Program-made: the position numbers and the translations under genes
Shown here: in pieces, positions 16,234 to 25,973 of the stretch
How positions within the stretch are numbered: position 1 is the first letter of the stretch
Layout of the letters: the number at the start of each line of letters is the position of its first letter
From: an uncultured Poribacteria bacterium
Lineage (GTDB): Bacteria > Poribacteria > WGA-4E > WGA-3G
Assembly: GCA_958296135.2 (NCBI GenBank)
Contig: CATQHZ020000001.1
Location: 3,584,001-3,648,000 of the forward strand
Direction: 5' to 3'
Length of the DNA: 64,000 nucleotides
The notes under the pieces: model-generated
Told to the model about the DNA's origin: nothing
The model's database searches: none
What the model saw: the letters and a program-made list of their open reading frames with translations, nothing else

Positions 16234-17292
16234 CTAAATTCTGCCCCGTTCCTCAAGCATTTTGACAGTTTGGATTGCCGCCTTTCTTGCGGCTTCGTTG
16301 GCGATGCGCTCGCTTTCCTCGCGCGCGGTTTGCGCTGCGACGCGTTTGCCTTCCTTGGCGGCCCGTTTTGCCACCTCGTTAGCCGCTTCGTGCGCTGCTT
16401 CGTTGGCGATGCGCTCGCTTTCCCGGGTCGCCTGCGCTGCGATTTCACTCGCTACCTGCTTGGCAACCTCACTCGCAGCTTGTATCGCTACCTCTCGCGC
16501 GATACGCTCGTTTTCCTGAGATGCTTCTCTGACGATGCGCTCCACGTTGCTGGTTGTCTGCGCGGCGATTTCGCCTGCAATCTCTTTCGCGACCTCGGCA
16601 GCTGCCACGCGAGCGGCTTCGCGCGCAATCCGTTCGTTTTCCTGCATCGTCTCATTTATCAGACGCTCGTTTGTCGCCATTGCAGCGTCAACAATGCGTC
16701 GGTTCTCGGCGGTTGCCTCGCTGACGATGCGCTCAGTCTCCTTTGTTGTTTGCGCGGCGATTTCACTCGCAATCTCTTTTGCGACTTCGCGAGCGACTTC
16801 GCGTGCAATATGCTCGTGTTTCTCCATCGCCTCGTCTATAGCGCGCCGGTTTTCGGCGATTGCCGCGTTTATTGCGCGTTCGTTTTTCTCCATCGCCTCG
16901 TCAACGATGCGCCTATTTTCAGCTATCGCCTCGTCAACGACGCGGTGAACTTCCATGAGCAACTCGCGCCGGAATAAATCCGCCTCCTGCCGCCATAAGG
17001 CAACTTCTTTTGTCAGGTTATCGAATTTCTCAGCCTGATTATCGAATTTCTCAGACAAATTCTGCTGAGAGTTTTCAATCCGAGTCAAGCGATTCTCCGA
17101 TTTCTCAGCCTGATTATCGAATTTCTCAGACAAATTCTGCTGAGAGTTTTCAATCCGAGTCAAGCGATTCTCCGATGCGTCGTCCCGCTTTTTGCGGCTC
17201 CACAGCCAGACGAGAAGTATCCCAATCCCAGTCGCAATCAGCGACGCGACGATAGGGAACACAAGATTGGTAAGTAACGGGTTAGAAAGCAC
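16234..17292 (-). CDS. Membrane-anchored repetitive coiled-coil protein
   Basis: GTG start after AGGAGG; one N-terminal TM helix; duplicated SENRLTRIENSQQNLSEKFDNQAEK; long Ala/Glu/Arg-rich repeats. Confidence 0.7.
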   Translation of the reverse strand: MLSNPLLTNLVFPIVASLIATGIGILLVWLWSRKKRDDASENRLTRIENSQQNLSEKFDNQAEKSENRLTRIENSQQNLSEKFDNQAEKFDNLTKEVALWRQEADLFRRELLMEVHRVVDEAIAENRRIVDEAMEKNERAINAAIAENRRAIDEAMEKHEHIAREVAREVAKEIASEIAAQTTKETERIVSEATAENRRIVDAAMATNERLINETMQENERIAREAARVAAAEVAKEIAGEIAAQTTSNVERIVREASQENERIAREVAIQAASEVAKQVASEIAAQATRESERIANEAAHEAANEVAKRAAKEGKRVAAQTAREESERIANEAARKAAIQTVKMLEERGRI

Positions 17293-17432
17293 AAAAACAT
17301 CCTCCTTTTCAGTTAAACTTAACACAAGTATAACATAAAAAGGCACCGATGTCAAGTCAAAAAAGTTTTTGTTGAATAAACCTCGCGACGTGTGGTAAAA
17401 TACTTAATCGAGCGTCTAAGGGGTTTTTTGTA

Positions 17433-18523: not shown

Positions 18524-19141
18524 CTAATAATAGAACCGCGCTTTGACATAGAAAACGAGGGCTGTGTTGCCGACTGCGAGCACCGCGCCAACCACGGTCT
18601 GAAGCAGCGTATGCCGCTTCCGGTAAACCCGAGCCCAAGCAATCAACGGCACCAGCAGAAAGAGCCACCCACATTGAGAATTCACAAGCACGACAAGCAC
18701 GGTAATGCACGCTGTCGCAACACTACTGTGGAAACTGATTTTCCATATCGGTGTAATCGCTGAGAACACAACGCTATTCGCGATATAAGCGACACCCGCC
18801 CAGACAATATGGTGCTCCGCATCAATCCAATACAGGATAACCGTGCCGACAATCATGCTCGCCAACGTGAAGCAGAGGGGTAGCAGGCGTTCCTCCTTGC
18901 TATGGAGGTGCCAGTCGCTGACTTTTGACAACCGAAACAGCATCCCGATCCAGAGAACAGGCAACACGGTAACGAACATCGCTAGAATCGTCAGCCACAG
19001 CAGTGTCTCGTGCGAGGTAACCGCATATTTCTCAACAACGACTACCGTCGTCGCAATCAGCACGAAAAATGGGCTGAAGACGAGGGAGATGCCCCAAGCC
19101 ACCCGTTCACGAAATGCTAAGAGAGTGCTACGCGTCATCAA
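18524..19141 (-). CDS. PAP2-like integral membrane protein
   Basis: Hydrophobic; KISFHS and WARVYRKRHTLLQTVVG motifs. Confidence 0.7.
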   Translation of the reverse strand: MMTRSTLLAFRERVAWGISLVFSPFFVLIATTVVVVEKYAVTSHETLLWLTILAMFVTVLPVLWIGMLFRLSKVSDWHLHSKEERLLPLCFTLASMIVGTVILYWIDAEHHIVWAGVAYIANSVVFSAITPIWKISFHSSVATACITVLVVLVNSQCGWLFLLVPLIAWARVYRKRHTLLQTVVGAVLAVGNTALVFYVKARFYY

Positions 19142-20197
19142 TTACTTTGACGGTTCCAACGTCTTAAAAAATTCCACTAAATCGGCACCGTGGGTGGAGA
19201 CGTTCACCTCGGTGTCAATTTTCGCAATATTCCCGGCTTTGTCAATGATAACGGTTAACCGCTTGACACGCCCATCAGGTGCATCTGTCGCGCCGAAAAG
19301 GAGCGCGAGGTGGCGGTGTGTATCCACCAAAAGCGGGAAATTGAGTTGATTCTCTGCCGAGAATTTCTGATGGGATTCAGCATCGTTCAGCGTAATCCCG
19401 AAAACCTGTGCATCGTGCAGAGCAAGACGACTCGACTCATCACGGAGCGAGCAGACTTCAATCGTTCAGCCACGCCCGAAATCGCGCGGATAAAAGGCAA
19501 GCACGACGTTCTTTTTGCCACGGAACTTGCTCAACTGGCGCGTTTCGCCTTTGCCATCAGTTGCGATAAAATCGGGCGCCGGTTGGTCCACCTCAATTCT
19601 CGGTAGCACTGTCTTAAGCATCGCGACAACATCTTCACCGTGTGTTTTAACCTTGACATTTTTATCTATCGAGCGGATGTAACCCGCCTTGTCAATGATA
19701 AAGGTGACCCGGTTTGAGGCGTTAAACTGAGTCATAATACCGCTATAGCGGCCGCTCACTTTAGCCGTTGGATCTGCCAGCAAGGAAAAGTCTAACTTCA
19801 GTGAGTCCCGAAAACGCCGATGCGTTTCAACAGTGTCAAGACTCACACCGAAAACCACGGTGCCGGTCGCTTTTATCTCGCTCAAATTTTCCCGGAGCGA
19901 GTTAACTTCAGTTGTTCATCCACCAGTGAAATCTTTCGGGTAAAAGGCGAGCACGACGTTCTTTTTGCCCCAGAACTCGCTGAGCGTTCGCATAACACCA
20001 GTATCATCTGGCAGCGTAAAATCGGGAGCTATCATCCCTACTTCCAGGGACTGCGATTGCGCCGCTGCTGCCAACGCCTTTGAATTTTTCACGTCATCCT
20101 CCGCGAAGACGGTGGGGCTCCAGAGGCCCACTGTGGACACAATAGCCCAACAAACGGCCGAAAATTGGAGAGCCCTCCTCCAAAACTTTTGAAACAT
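19142..20197 (-). CDS. bcp: Tandem two-domain BCP/PrxQ peroxiredoxin, selenoprotein with two UGA-Sec codons and an N-terminal signal peptide
   Basis: One frame joins three ORF-track pieces across TGA 19916-19918 (FYPKDFTGG-U-TTEVN) and TGA 19466-19468 (FYPRDFGRG-U-TIEVC); both TGAs align with the peroxidatic Cys. Confidence 0.88.
19431..19451 (-). promoter_or_regulatory. Candidate SECIS hairpin for Sec 2 of the peroxiredoxin
   Basis: CUCGCUC-CGUGAU-GAG(U)CGAG, starting 14 nt after the UGA. Confidence 0.65.
19877..19901 (-). promoter_or_regulatory. Candidate SECIS hairpin for Sec 1 of the peroxiredoxin
   Basis: CUCGCUC-CGGGAAAAUUU-GAGCGAG, starting 14 nt after the UGA. Confidence 0.65.
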
Positions 20198-20491
20198 TTC
20201 CGATACCTCAAAAATAGATTGATTAGGACTGCCGGACATAAGCGCAGTTTCAAACCGCGCCTACCGGTTGATGTAACTCTTTGCATAAGCTGCAAAGAGC
20301 CCTATTAAAATGATACCACTTTTTTCTGTGGCTGTCAAGCGAAAAAACGAACCGCCCAGAACTATTTGGTTCTCCGCTGGGCCCTGTGAAGGACAGATTG
20401 CTATATCTGTCCGTTTGTTTTGCATGTCGGGCGGATAGAGACATCCGCCCTTACAAACAACAGACCGGCAATGGAAAACGGCACCACCGCG

Positions 20492-22321: not shown

Positions 22322-22499
22322 TGGGAGCGCCTCCTCATCTCAGATTATGATTTAATTTTAGCATATTGCCGAAAATATTTTCAAGCCAATTTTTGACCCG
22401 GGACAAAAAAACTTGACAATCTTCACATTTTGTAATAGACTGGTTTATGGAATATGCACACCGGCTGTTTTTTTACAGCCAGCCCTTTGGAGGCACTCT

Positions 22500-24182
22500 A
22501 TGACGACACTACAAAAAAGCCTCATCGGCATCTTCATTTTTATCAGCATCTGTTTGGGATTGATGTGGCGCGCGGGACAAGTCGTCGCGGACGCTAGCCT
22601 CGTATGGTATAGCGTGATACCGCCATTGCTCGCTGTCACACTCGCTATTCTGACAACGCGCCTAATCTTAAGTCTCGGCATAGCCGTCGGCATCGGCCTT
22701 GGGCTTGCATGGACAAGACAGGATGTAACCGGCGGAATCGCGACCGGGAAATCGCTCCTATGGGAGATAGTGTGGTTCGCGCGCGAGGTTACCATCAAAA
22801 ACGAACCTAACATCGATCTCTTCAATATCTGGGTAATCTTGTTCGTCTTGCTTATCATGGCGACGATTGCTGTCGTAGTCGCATCGGGCGGTATTGCAGG
22901 CGTTGTGACGTGGCTGTCGCGGTTTGCCAAGGGGCCGCGCTCTACGCAAATCATCACCGCCGTGATGGGAATTGTCATTTTTATCGGCGATTATTCCAAC
23001 GCGATGCTCGTCGGCCCGACGATGCGGCCCCTAACAGATTATCATCGGGTGAGTCGTGAAAAGCTGGCCTATATCGTCGATTCCACCAGCGCGCCTATCG
23101 CAGGACTCGCCTTCGTCAGCACATGGATAGGCTATGAGGTTGGCCTTTTTAACGATGTCGCGAAATCCATAGGAATTGAACGCGACGGCTACTCCATGTT
23201 CTTTGACGCGCTCGGATTTCGGTTTTATTGCATTCTGACAATCATTTTTGTCATTGTCAACGCAATCAGTGGACGTGATTACGGCGCGATGCGGAAAGCA
23301 GAAGCGCGCGCGCGGGAGACAGGTGCCGTGGCTGAACCCGATGCCCAACTCGTCGGAGACACGACATCGTCGGAAATCGCGCCGAGTGCTGCCACACATC
23401 CGTTTTCAGCAGTGCTCCCGCTCCTAACGCTTTTTTCTTTGTTACTCGGCGGTTTCTGGGTAGATGGGCAGGGCACGGGCACCATCTTCTCCCTCACCGC
23501 ATGGCGCGACGCGCTCTCGAATGCCGATAACGTCAAGGTTCTCGCTATTGCCGCCGCTAGCGGATTCTTCGTCGCGATAGTTTGCGCACGCGGGCTATCC
23601 AACATGAGATTCGCGGATATCGGCACCGCCGTGTGGAACGGCGTGAAGTCTAGTTTTATTCCACTGAGTATCCTGTTGTTGGCTTGGGGATTAAAAGCGA
23701 GTTGCGATAGACTCATGACAGGCGCATTCCTCGCGGCGATGCTGCAGGATGTCGTCTCACCACTCTGGTTTCCCATCCTCGTCTTTACGTGCGCGTCCGC
23801 CTGCTCGTTTGCTACCGGCACCAGCTGGGGCACCATGGCGATTCTCATCCCCACCGCGATTCCGGTGGCATTCGCTCTTGATGGAAATATCTACGGCCTG
23901 ACGACAATCATCTGTTTAGGGGCCGTGTTAGACGGTGCCATCTTCGGAGACCACTGTTCCCCGCTCTCGGATACGACTATCCTGAGTTCTATCGCGAGTA
24001 ACTGCGCGCCGCTGCACCATGTCCGAACCCAATTGCCTTACGCGCTCACCGTTGCAGGCATCGCCTTCGTATGCGGATACCTGCCGGCGGCGTTGAACAT
24101 TTCTTCCGCTATCGGCATTGCGGCCGGCACGGGGCTCATTGTGCTACTGTTTTATGGGTTGTCGCGGCTGCGTTCGTCTTAA
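22500..24182 (+). CDS. NhaC-family Na+/H+ antiporter-like transporter
   Basis: SREKLAYIVDSTSAP, FATGTSWGTMAI, GAIFGDHCSPLSDTT, HVRTQLPYAL. Confidence 0.9.
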   Translation: MTTLQKSLIGIFIFISICLGLMWRAGQVVADASLVWYSVIPPLLAVTLAILTTRLILSLGIAVGIGLGLAWTRQDVTGGIATGKSLLWEIVWFAREVTIKNEPNIDLFNIWVILFVLLIMATIAVVVASGGIAGVVTWLSRFAKGPRSTQIITAVMGIVIFIGDYSNAMLVGPTMRPLTDYHRVSREKLAYIVDSTSAPIAGLAFVSTWIGYEVGLFNDVAKSIGIERDGYSMFFDALGFRFYCILTIIFVIVNAISGRDYGAMRKAEARARETGAVAEPDAQLVGDTTSSEIAPSAATHPFSAVLPLLTLFSLLLGGFWVDGQGTGTIFSLTAWRDALSNADNVKVLAIAAASGFFVAIVCARGLSNMRFADIGTAVWNGVKSSFIPLSILLLAWGLKASCDRLMTGAFLAAMLQDVVSPLWFPILVFTCASACSFATGTSWGTMAILIPTAIPVAFALDGNIYGLTTIICLGAVLDGAIFGDHCSPLSDTTILSSIASNCAPLHHVRTQLPYALTVAGIAFVCGYLPAALNISSAIGIAAGTGLIVLLFYGLSRLRSS

Positions 24183-24206
24183 CATTCAACACACTAGAAA
24201 CCAATT

Positions 24207-25973
24207 ATGAGTACTAAACTGAAAATATTTATCAGTGCCTTCGTCTTTGTCAGCATCACGCTTGCCTGTATCCTCGGTGCGCAGCAAGTCGATGCTGCCG
24301 CAGGACTCGTTTGGTATAGTGTGATACCGCCGCTGCTTGCTGTCACGCTCGCCATTCTCACAGCCCGATTCTTCTTGAGTCTCAGTGTCGCTGTTGGTGC
24401 AAGCATCGTGCTCAGCTGGATAAAACATTACCTGACGGCCGGCGAACCTGCCTCATCATTGATTCCCAATTTTTTCGGCGAAACTATCTGGTTTGTAGGG
24501 AAGGTGGCATTAGACTTAGAAAACATCTGGATGGCACTTTTCGTCTTTCTGATTTTGTCAATGATTGCGGTGGTGGTATCGTCCGGCGGCATGGGCGGCA
24601 TCGTCGCGTGGCTCTCGCGGTTTGCAAAAGGACCGCGCTCAACGCAAGTCGTCACCGCTTTGATAGGCGTGTTCGTCTTTATCGGTGACTATACGAGCGC
24701 GATGCTCACTGGGCCTAGCATGCGTCCGATGACAGACAGGTTCCGCGTTTGTCGTGAAAAACTGGCATACATCGTGGATTCTACCAGCGCGCCGATTACC
24801 GGGCTCGCCTTTGTCAGCACATGGATAGGTGTGGAAGTCGGACTTTTTAGCGACGTTTCAGGATCTCTGCAACTCGGCCGCGACGGTTACTCCATGTTCT
24901 TTGACGCGCTCGGATTCCGATTCTACTGCATCCTGACGATCATCTTTGTCATCATCAATGCAATCAGCGGTAGAGATTACGGTGCAATGCGAAAAGCCGC
25001 AACCCGCGCACGGGAGACAGGGGCGGTTTCCGAACCGAACGCTAAAATGCTCGGAGACCCGGCATCTTTTACGAGCACGCCAAACGTCGTCACGCAACCG
25101 TTGTCCGCCATCTTACCGCTCGTCACCCTTTTCGCGCTGCTCCTTGGCGGGCTCTGGCTGACAGCGGTTTGGGTGAGGGGCGAAGGAACCGAACTCATCC
25201 TCTCACCCGCCGCGTGGCAGGCCGTGCTGGCGAAACTCAAAGCAGAGGGGAAAGAACTCGGATTTATCCTCTCCCTCTCCGCCTGGAGAAATGTGCTAAC
25301 GACGCTGAAGACTGTTCAAATCCTTAGAATGCTAGCCTGTGCAGCGTGCGGCTCGCTTGTTGTCGCAATCATCTGCGCGCGCGGCTTATCAAAGCTGCAA
25401 TTTCCAGACATCCGCACCGCCGTTTTGGCCGGGCTCAAGGGTAGCCTCGTCCCCTTGGGAATTCTCGTCCTCGTCTGGGGTTTAAAAACTGGATGCAAAA
25501 GATTGGAGACAGGGCAATTTCTCGCGTTGATACTTGAAGGAAAGGTGCCTGTCCTGGTGTTCCCGATGCTCGTTTTTGCAACCGGGGCCGCCTGCTCGTT
25601 TGCAACAGGCTCTAGTTGGAGCACGATGGCAATTCTCATACCTACCGCCGTCCCGGTAGCGTATGCAATGGACGGGGATACCTACGGCTTGACGACGCTC
25701 ATTTGTCTCGGTGCGACGCTGGATGGGGCCATCTTCGGCGACCACTGCTCCCCGATTTCCGATACGACGGTTTTCAGCGCGATTGCCAGCAGCTGCGATG
25801 CGCTACACCACGTCCGAACCCAATTGCCTTATGCGCTCACCGTTGCGTTCATCGCGTTAGGGTGCGGCTATTTTCTCGCCGCGCTGGGGCTCTTTGCACC
25901 GCTCTGCATTCTCGTCGGGACAGGGGTGATTGCACTGCTCTTTTTTGGTATTTGTCGCCGCAGCGATGTGTAG
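24207..25973 (+). CDS. NhaC-family transporter, tandem paralog
   Basis: Same motifs as the upstream paralog. Confidence 0.9.
   Translation: MSTKLKIFISAFVFVSITLACILGAQQVDAAAGLVWYSVIPPLLAVTLAILTARFFLSLSVAVGASIVLSWIKHYLTAGEPASSLIPNFFGETIWFVGKVALDLENIWMALFVFLILSMIAVVVSSGGMGGIVAWLSRFAKGPRSTQVVTALIGVFVFIGDYTSAMLTGPSMRPMTDRFRVCREKLAYIVDSTSAPITGLAFVSTWIGVEVGLFSDVSGSLQLGRDGYSMFFDALGFRFYCILTIIFVIINAISGRDYGAMRKAATRARETGAVSEPNAKMLGDPASFTSTPNVVTQPLSAILPLVTLFALLLGGLWLTAVWVRGEGTELILSPAAWQAVLAKLKAEGKELGFILSLSAWRNVLTTLKTVQILRMLACAACGSLVVAIICARGLSKLQFPDIRTAVLAGLKGSLVPLGILVLVWGLKTGCKRLETGQFLALILEGKVPVLVFPMLVFATGAACSFATGSSWSTMAILIPTAVPVAYAMDGDTYGLTTLICLGATLDGAIFGDHCSPISDTTVFSAIASSCDALHHVRTQLPYALTVAFIALGCGYFLAALGLFAPLCILVGTGVIALLFFGICRRSDV

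Follow-up and report, generated by a model that had tools for sequence, protein, structure and literature searches.

The window, as the whole stretch of DNA analysed here is called, is 64,000 nucleotides long and comes from an uncultured member of the Poribacteria. It contains a minus-strand gene of 351 codons which encodes a predicted signal peptide followed by two peroxiredoxin (Prx) domains of the BCP/PrxQ type (Table 1). When TGA is translated as selenocysteine (Sec, U), the frame is continuous and holds two TGA codons and no other internal stop, which bears out the single interrupted frame proposed in a first-pass annotation of this DNA. The placement of each TGA at the peroxidatic position of its domain (FYPKDFTGG-U-TTEVN for U94 and FYPRDFGRG-U-TIEVC for U244) is likewise borne out, both by the translation and by the two AhpC-TSA stretches that Pfam recognises in the product.

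Translation with table 11 breaks the gene apart, and 107- and 139-aa open reading frames are listed (with an 80-aa cut-off). Relatives in public protein sets are held as fragments of 93, 140 and 82 aa, the division into three genes that had been predicted, and other database entries give relatives in full-length translation with Trp at both TGA sites. The gene occurs in nearly every sampled genome of this Poribacteria order, yet its database copies are fragmented or carry Trp at the active sites, and as a result the antioxidant capacity and selenium dependence of the order are misread. The stretch is identical in contigs from two runs of one sample, though these are possibly the source of this DNA.

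Table 1. Features of the tandem peroxiredoxin gene (positions in the window)
Feature	Position	Strand	Description
Whole gene	19142..20197	-	351 codons and TAA; signal peptide and two BCP/PrxQ domains; two in-frame TGA
Shine-Dalgarno GAGG of start 1	20206..20209	-	Duplex with 16S tail -7.0 kcal/mol
Start 1 (ATG), predicted exported precursor	20195..20197	-	In-frame ATG and hydrophobic core in 50/54 ortholog N-termini
Predicted signal peptide, residues 1-32	20102..20197	-	Cleavage predicted between VFA and EDD; heuristic
Internal Shine-Dalgarno GGAGG	20098..20102	-	Lies within codons Ala32-Glu33-Asp34, at the predicted cleavage site
Start 2 (GTG, codon 36), predicted cytoplasmic isoform of 316 aa	20090..20092	-	ATG/GTG in 53/53 in-frame orthologs
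Domain 1, BCP/PrxQ	19604..20050	-	P87-x3-T91-x2-U94, Arg163; without resolving Cys in this genome
TGA 1, predicted Sec94	19916..19918	-	Frame and ortholog alignment
SECIS-like hairpin 1	19877..19901	-	7-bp CUCGCUC/GAGCGAG stem, starts at +15
Domain 2, BCP/PrxQ	19145..19603	-	P237-x3-G241-x2-U244-x4-C249, Arg313
TGA 2, predicted Sec244	19466..19468	-	Frame and ortholog alignment
Cys249, predicted to be the resolving Cys in domain 2	19451..19453	-	Cys in 98/100 orthologs
SECIS-like hairpin 2	19430..19452	-	8 bp, bulged C; loop CGUGAU from +22

Decoding of the two TGA codons

A genome search for selA, selB, selC and selD, suggested in the first-pass annotation, recovered all four genes above curated cut-offs (selA 596 bits, selB 318, selD 351 and tRNA-Sec, the selC product, 78). 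The selB gene adjoins that for tRNA-Sec, and selD itself contains a TGA.

A full tandem match with both TGAs is found in 37 of the 41 related genomes; of the remaining four, three have a single domain and one has no strong match. A wider search at E<=1e-30 gave a match for 136/139 further genomes from the same order and for 0/11 from other orders; five of these outside genomes were searched again, and three have a single BCP domain, with Cys at the catalytic position in two and TGA in one. Both TGAs are present in 100 of 100 distinct tandem orthologs under a search pattern that allows any residue at the catalytic position, a count which supersedes an earlier and circular 52/52 (its pattern demanded U), and which overstates independence because the orthologs are related to one another. 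The frame between the two TGAs is open in 99 of them. This contradicts the possibility, raised at the outset, that the stops are not conserved in close relatives. A single domain of this kind is found in 58 distant metagenome loci, 35 of which have TGA and 23 Cys at the catalytic position. The alternation of TGA and Cys that had been anticipated in homologs is therefore seen at the same position, and it is the pattern expected for a selenoprotein.

It could be argued that TGA encodes Trp here (code 4), or that the two codons are true stops within a split or decaying gene, and the database entries described above, some full length with Trp and others in three fragments, agree with one or other of these readings. 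The only tRNA of the genome with a UCA anticodon is tRNA-Sec, however, the tRNA-Trp anticodon being CCA, and several orthologs use TGA as their terminal stop; together these observations exclude code 4. Relatives without TGA at the catalytic position have Cys there, and 99 of the 100 tandem orthologs keep the frame and both active sites. Such a reading is thus extremely improbable, and both TGAs are very likely read as Sec.

The distant loci (L172-L229) belong to a broad family of signal-peptide-bearing PrxQ proteins with the site FYPKDFTGG-U/C, which occurs outside the Poribacteria and to which the 35 to 23 division between TGA and Cys refers. Some of its TGA forms (L172-L181) combine a U-T-C motif with fusion to another redoxin-like domain. 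In L184 the fusion partner is possibly an FKBP-like domain.

SECIS-like hairpins

The motif CTCGCTC occurs 14 nt after both TGAs and pairs with GAGCGAG at the first site and GAGTCGAG at the second, in each case with a loop that starts CG; the sequences, including the different partners and the G as second loop base, are as originally described. In this one sequence, however, the folding energies of the hairpins do not exceed chance when compared with shuffles (z = -0.52, +0.08, -1.40 and +0.44), an alternative fold is preferred in the 69-nt minimum free energy (MFE) structure of site 2, and a loose scan of contig C1 for SECIS geometry plus motif returns 1555 hits. A SECIS element is therefore not established by the single sequence. 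The genome-wide scan was also considered as a census of selenoproteins and was dropped as too unspecific.

Conservation among orthologs makes the hairpins credible. At ten four- or six-fold degenerate sites within them, codon homozygosity is 0.56-1.0, whereas it averages 0.35 over 96 conserved sites elsewhere (52 orthologs), and the codons for Leu101 and Leu251 are CTC in 51/51. For hairpin 2, 99.8% of 400 cells from 50 distinct sequences are paired, with two pairs changed on both sides, and the best pairing among slid controls is 40%. For hairpin 1 the paired share is lower, 87.8% of 329 cells; there are 14 two-sided changes and 0/500 shuffles are as high, although kinship among the orthologs inflates these pairing and covariation controls. 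The two-sided changes in hairpin 1 are mostly from C-G to G-C at the outer pair, and this pair is disrupted in 18 of 47 sequences. The claim that each TGA has its own SECIS hairpin thus fails on energy in this sequence alone but gains from synonymous constraint and covariation across orthologs.

The two hairpins are not equally convincing. The consensus bSECIS model given in PMC13188914 has a loop of 3-9 nt, and hairpin 2 fits it (loop CGUGAU after 21 nt, local MFE -9.5). For hairpin 1 only the MFE fold agrees with it, having a 5-nt loop starting with G (-10.7); the 11-nt loop of the centroid and conserved fold is longer than the model allows. In families f2-f4, moreover, it is the register of hairpin 2 that is used at site 1. 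Hairpin 1 is the weaker case because of this long conserved loop and the other register in f2-f4. Together with the Sec machinery, the TGA/TGA count and the alternation with Cys, the conserved hairpins back the central proposal of the first-pass annotation, a tandem peroxiredoxin with two predicted Sec residues.

Similar hairpin tops, of the form CUC-(C)GG...GAG, are found in selD and two other TGA-containing genes of the thioredoxin fold in this genome. Two lipoprotein-like Prx-like genes, L086 and L088 (G000:C1, at about 2,595,000 and 3,119,000), have a TGA in a UxxC motif (FYRGGW-U-PFC and FYRFGT-U-GFC) and matching hairpins, and in L086 a GTG with GAGG follows soon after the lipobox.

Domains, fold and active sites

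The best NCBIfam model for the product is the BCP equivalog PRK09437, which matches in two stretches with 171 bits (cut-off 140); the NCBIfam PrxU model scores 104, under its cut-off of 270. An AlphaFold model of residues 49-351, with U replaced by C, has a pLDDT of 93 and a pTM of 0.91. The closest structures for each half are of the BCP/AhpE type (domain 1: Z 23.6, rmsd 1.6 Å over 147 residues; domain 2: Z 23.5). PDB matches include 3drn, 5enu and 5epf, and the catalytic Arg aligns with that of 3drn and 5enu. The solved structures matched each cover one domain, about 150 of the 303 residues, and the matches include no two-domain Prx chain.

Neither Pro nor the catalytic Arg varies in either domain (52/52 orthologs). 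In domain 1 P87, T91 and R163 are all present in 52/52, and in the larger set Thr is found in 100/100 and a Cys at +5 in 15/100. In domain 2 Thr is replaced by Gly in 57 of 100 orthologs, which form one clade, and is retained in the other 43; within the 52-sequence set the Gly form is limited to the family of the window. The motif PxxxT/SxxC(U) plus Arg is therefore complete in domain 1 and broken in domain 2 at Gly241, where Pro and Arg are retained. The asymmetry reported earlier, with domain 1 lacking the resolving Cys and domain 2 the Thr, is true of this genome but not of the family as a whole. Since Thr is lost in the window's family, domain 2 is probably slower or retuned there. This effect is inferred from motif statements in PMC3322552 and PMC13188914; the literature searched yielded no usable kinetics of Thr-mutant peroxiredoxins.

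In a quick tree of 69 domains, the domain-1 sequences form one clade (SH-aLRT 99) and the domain-2 sequences another (98), which indicates that the tandem is older than the four families; whether the two clades are sisters is not resolved by this tree. Single-domain copies without a signal peptide group with domain 2 and those with one group with domain 1, a pattern that represents only two to four independent events and is accompanied by a locus, L067, in which the signal peptide is lost and both domains are kept.

Several variants of the arrangement were seen. In genus g8, the single-domain loci L073-L075, L081 and L082 have a body resembling domain 2 behind an N-terminus resembling domain 1, as though part of the tandem gene had looped out, and one genome (G056) has two copies of this form. 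The paralog L077 (G059; proteins P0017-P0019) has no signal peptide, a degenerate domain 1 with neither Cys nor Sec, and an intact Sec domain 2. In the window itself, a run of 20 identical bases (GGCAAAAAGAACGTCGTGCT) is common to positions 19915-19969 and 19465-19519; the six other orthologs compared share less between their domains, and gene conversion between the two domains is a possible explanation.

Predicted signal peptide and second start

The N-terminus has a basic n-region, a hydrophobic core (best 11-residue Kyte-Doolittle mean 2.04) and a VFA-EDD junction, so by heuristic the features of the signal peptide noticed in the first-pass annotation are present, and they recur in most orthologs (Table 1). 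A signal-like stretch is also found in 46 of 50 distant relatives. Export by the Tat pathway was considered and rejected: it is unlikely because RR occurs in just 3 of 50 signal peptides (a same-genus ortholog has RK). The signal peptide is probably of the Sec-translocon type.

Three codons beyond the predicted cleavage site lies a GTG with GGAGG 5 nt ahead of it, and the 16S tail of the genome ends GAUCACCUCCUUU. Among 54 tandem N-termini, one is frameshifted and all of the other 53 have ATG (17) or GTG (36) at this position, which was set by eye in 8 of the 53. GGAG or GAGG precedes it in 52/53 orthologs vs 3.3% of 302 control in-frame ATG/GTG codons from gene bodies. Every one of the 36 Val codons at the site is GTG vs 234 of 1284 Val codons in the gene body, and while the neighbouring residues vary freely the start residue is encoded only by ATG or GTG.

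A held-out test with a fixed rule drew on 62 further loci, of which 15 were duplicates, one was truncated and seven were unparsed, leaving 39. Signal peptide, internal Shine-Dalgarno sequence (SD) and start were all found in 34 of these 39. Three of the five misses are loci in which domain 2 alone was parsed, one has a broken signal peptide and keeps the internal start, and the fifth keeps the ATG with an SD just beyond the search window. In four of the seven unparsed loci the site is visible by eye; recovery of the remaining three did not extend to the N-terminus of domain 1. Controls for the internal start range from 3 to 7% overall; a downstream SD and start are present in 17 of 285 signal-peptide-like genes of this genome, in 44 of its 1187 other genes and in just 3 of the 46 distant relatives that have a signal-like stretch. 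Copies that lack the signal peptide (L067, L073, L075, L077, L081 and L116) retain the internal SD and start, and begin there.

Together, this suggests that the two conserved starts are likely to yield an exported and a cytoplasmic form from one gene. The description of the protein as secreted stands as far as the predicted export signal goes, but not if taken to mean exclusively secreted: it probably covers only one of two forms, since a second, conserved start follows the signal peptide. The two predicted forms would be nearly identical since start 2 is only three codons past the cleavage site. The mature exported protein is predicted to have 319 aa (35.2 kDa) and the internal-start product 316 aa (34.9 kDa), and products of about 35 kDa should replace the 38 kDa given earlier.

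Proposed function and alternative readings

The reading we favour, and think probable as a whole, combines Sec at both UGA codons with exported and cytoplasmic isoforms from the two starts. SelB and tRNA-Sec would almost certainly decode each UGA, guided by the intragenic hairpin 14-15 nt downstream. With good though lesser confidence, start 1 would give a precursor which is cut between VFA and EDD to release the envelope enzyme, and start 2 would give the cytoplasmic one. By analogy with the chemistry of the family, the selenolate would reduce H2O2 or organic peroxides, domain 1 acting as a '1-Sec' Prx with a complete Pro-Thr-Arg site and domain 2 resolving through a Sec244-Cys249 selenenylsulfide. 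Electrons might be supplied by thioredoxin in the cytoplasm and by a DsbD-type or TlpA-like protein in the envelope; one full protein of the DsbD type and one exported TlpA-like protein are encoded in the genome. There are 12 AhpC-TSA matches in the genome, and besides this gene a PxxxT/SxxC site is found only in a cytoplasmic AhpE-like protein, which is why the cytoplasmic isoform would take the BCP role.

Two simpler accounts accept both Sec residues and dispute one of the starts. In one, the enzyme is exported only, and constraints on the amino acids around the signal-peptidase site happen to create the internal SD and start. Acidic residues are commonplace after a signal-peptidase cleavage site, and the scarcity of a downstream SD and start in distant signal-bearing relatives (3/46) points to export alone as the ancestral state. 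Amino-acid constraint does not account, however, for Met and Val being exchanged solely through ATG and GTG while adjacent residues vary freely, nor for a GAG codon in 44 of 48 cases at the Glu three positions upstream in a gene that prefers GAA (707 vs 329), and the copies without a signal peptide start at the internal codon; we regard an exclusively exported enzyme as unlikely. The opposite account, in which start 2 is genuine and the upstream extension is barely translated or not exported, would make the enzyme cytoplasmic only. It draws on the stronger and, by prediction, more accessible SD of start 2 in this genome (-9.5 vs -7.0 kcal/mol; 0.56 vs 0.35 unpaired) and on the loss of the extension in several lineages. 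It has to contend with an in-frame upstream ATG and hydrophobic core in 50 of 54 N-termini across four families, and with two domain-1-only paralogs, L078 and L080, in which the signal peptide has been retained although the internal start or its SD is gone. It is the less probable of the two, and very unlikely.

A different question is what domain 2 does in this lineage. Rather than a peroxidase it might be a built-in redox relay that re-reduces the Cys-less domain 1, a proposal that is compatible with the Sec decoding and two-start steps of the favoured reading. The exchange of Thr241 for Gly in one clade (57/100) with Sec244, Cys249 and Arg313 retained would fit a relay, as would the fixed two-domain arrangement in the model (pTM 0.91), and an intramolecular recycling domain has a precedent in PilB as described in PMC6210582. 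On the other side, the catalytic Arg is kept in 52/52, families f2-f4 have Thr in both domains and yet a domain 1 that likewise lacks the Cys, and single-domain copies of either type occur. A relay role is therefore doubtful, though less so than the single-start accounts.

If the favoured reading of two Sec residues and two starts is right, the same di-selenium Prx would be present on both sides of the inner membrane. We suggest tentatively that the Cys-less domain 1 might serve the envelope and the Sec-Cys domain 2 the cytoplasm, with the non-canonical G-R-G-U site that domain 2 has in this genome's family having a new substrate or relay role; taken as a whole, this is speculative. Such a division of labour is hinted at by which domain the reduced copies keep: domain 2 persists where the signal peptide is lost (L073, L075, L081 and also L077, whose domain 1 is dead), and copies with a signal peptide have domain 1 only (L078, L079 and L080). 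The protein offers a natural test bed for how an envelope Sec Prx without a resolving Cys is recycled, and for whether Sec makes an otherwise invariant Thr dispensable.

Relation to known systems

Catalogued Sec-containing peroxiredoxins (PF00578, TxxU, one Sec; PMC13188914) resemble this protein in the Prx fold, an intragenic hairpin and, for domain 1, the placement of the predicted Sec within PxxxTxxU. The present protein differs in having two domains, each with its own predicted Sec and hairpin, as well as a predicted signal peptide and a second start site. The only two-Sec PF00578 entry in Table 1 of PMC13188914 is a UxxU thiol:disulfide oxidoreductase. The same table lists bacterial double selenoproteins (MduS, MbdU, UXX-star fusions and TsoB), which also have two UGA-Sec codons per frame, but none listed is a tandem peroxiredoxin; an architecture of this kind, requiring two independent UGA recoding events, is absent from its 119 prokaryotic selenoprotein families. 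The passages on fusions in the GOS paper describe Prx fused to other domains (PMC2398784). BCP/PrxQ proteins (PRK09437; 3drn, 5enu, 5epf) are the best matches in sequence and fold, with an aligned catalytic Arg and the +5 Cys in domain 2, but this protein is a tandem, is predicted to use Sec and in this lineage lacks the Thr of domain 2.

Caulobacter PprX is an envelope PrxQ reduced via ScsB-TlpA or DsbD-gamma (PMC3322552). The present protein resembles it in protein type, as a PrxQ with a predicted signal peptide, and DsbD-type and TlpA-like proteins are encoded here; PprX differs in its Cys active site, and the account of it in PMC3322552 describes no second domain or cytoplasmic isoform. 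Use of an internal start to serve two compartments from one gene is known for Enterobacter Tli (bioRxiv 10.1101/2023.03.28.534661) and for the Neisseria antioxidant protein PilB (MsrA/B), which has periplasmic and cytoplasmic forms and in which an internal AUG (Met195) drops a whole domain (PMC6210582). The conserved SD and in-frame start found here resemble these cases; the proteins are unrelated, however, and start 2 lies so close to the cleavage site that the two forms would be near-identical. Should translation also begin at start 2, the cytoplasm and the envelope would receive almost the same product from a single selenoprotein gene.

No paper on a Poribacteria peroxiredoxin was found, and the titles listed for Poribacteria selenoproteins, which concern hydrogenases, or for selenocysteine include nothing on this protein. 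The deep-Sep and BSepDB texts contain no Prx or Poribacteria terms (the BSepDB supplement, at about 4.0 million characters, is possibly incomplete), and a 2026 review of bacterial N-terminal proteoforms mentions neither 'peroxiredoxin' nor 'seleno'. Single-Sec peroxiredoxins, envelope PrxQ proteins and dual-start genes are thus each known, and their combination appears to be undescribed, though a database entry may exist.

Genomic neighbourhood

Right after the stop codon begins a gene for a PAP2-like membrane protein (18524-19141, minus strand), which accompanies it at 46 of the 69 loci; these belong without exception to family f1 or to close named relatives. A functional link is not evident, and no redox partner gene is conserved beside the peroxiredoxin gene in the 69 loci. 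Elsewhere in the window, a 373-aa open reading frame (16234-17355, minus strand) has an N-terminal membrane segment and coiled-coil-like repeats (ENRRIVDEAM / ENERIAREAA), and two neighbouring paralogous genes (22413-25973, plus strand) encode multi-pass membrane proteins of about 589 aa. Contig C2 of G000 (143,886 bp), which has a GC content of 37% vs 54% for C1 and its own tRNAs and tmRNA, is probably a phage or a contaminant.
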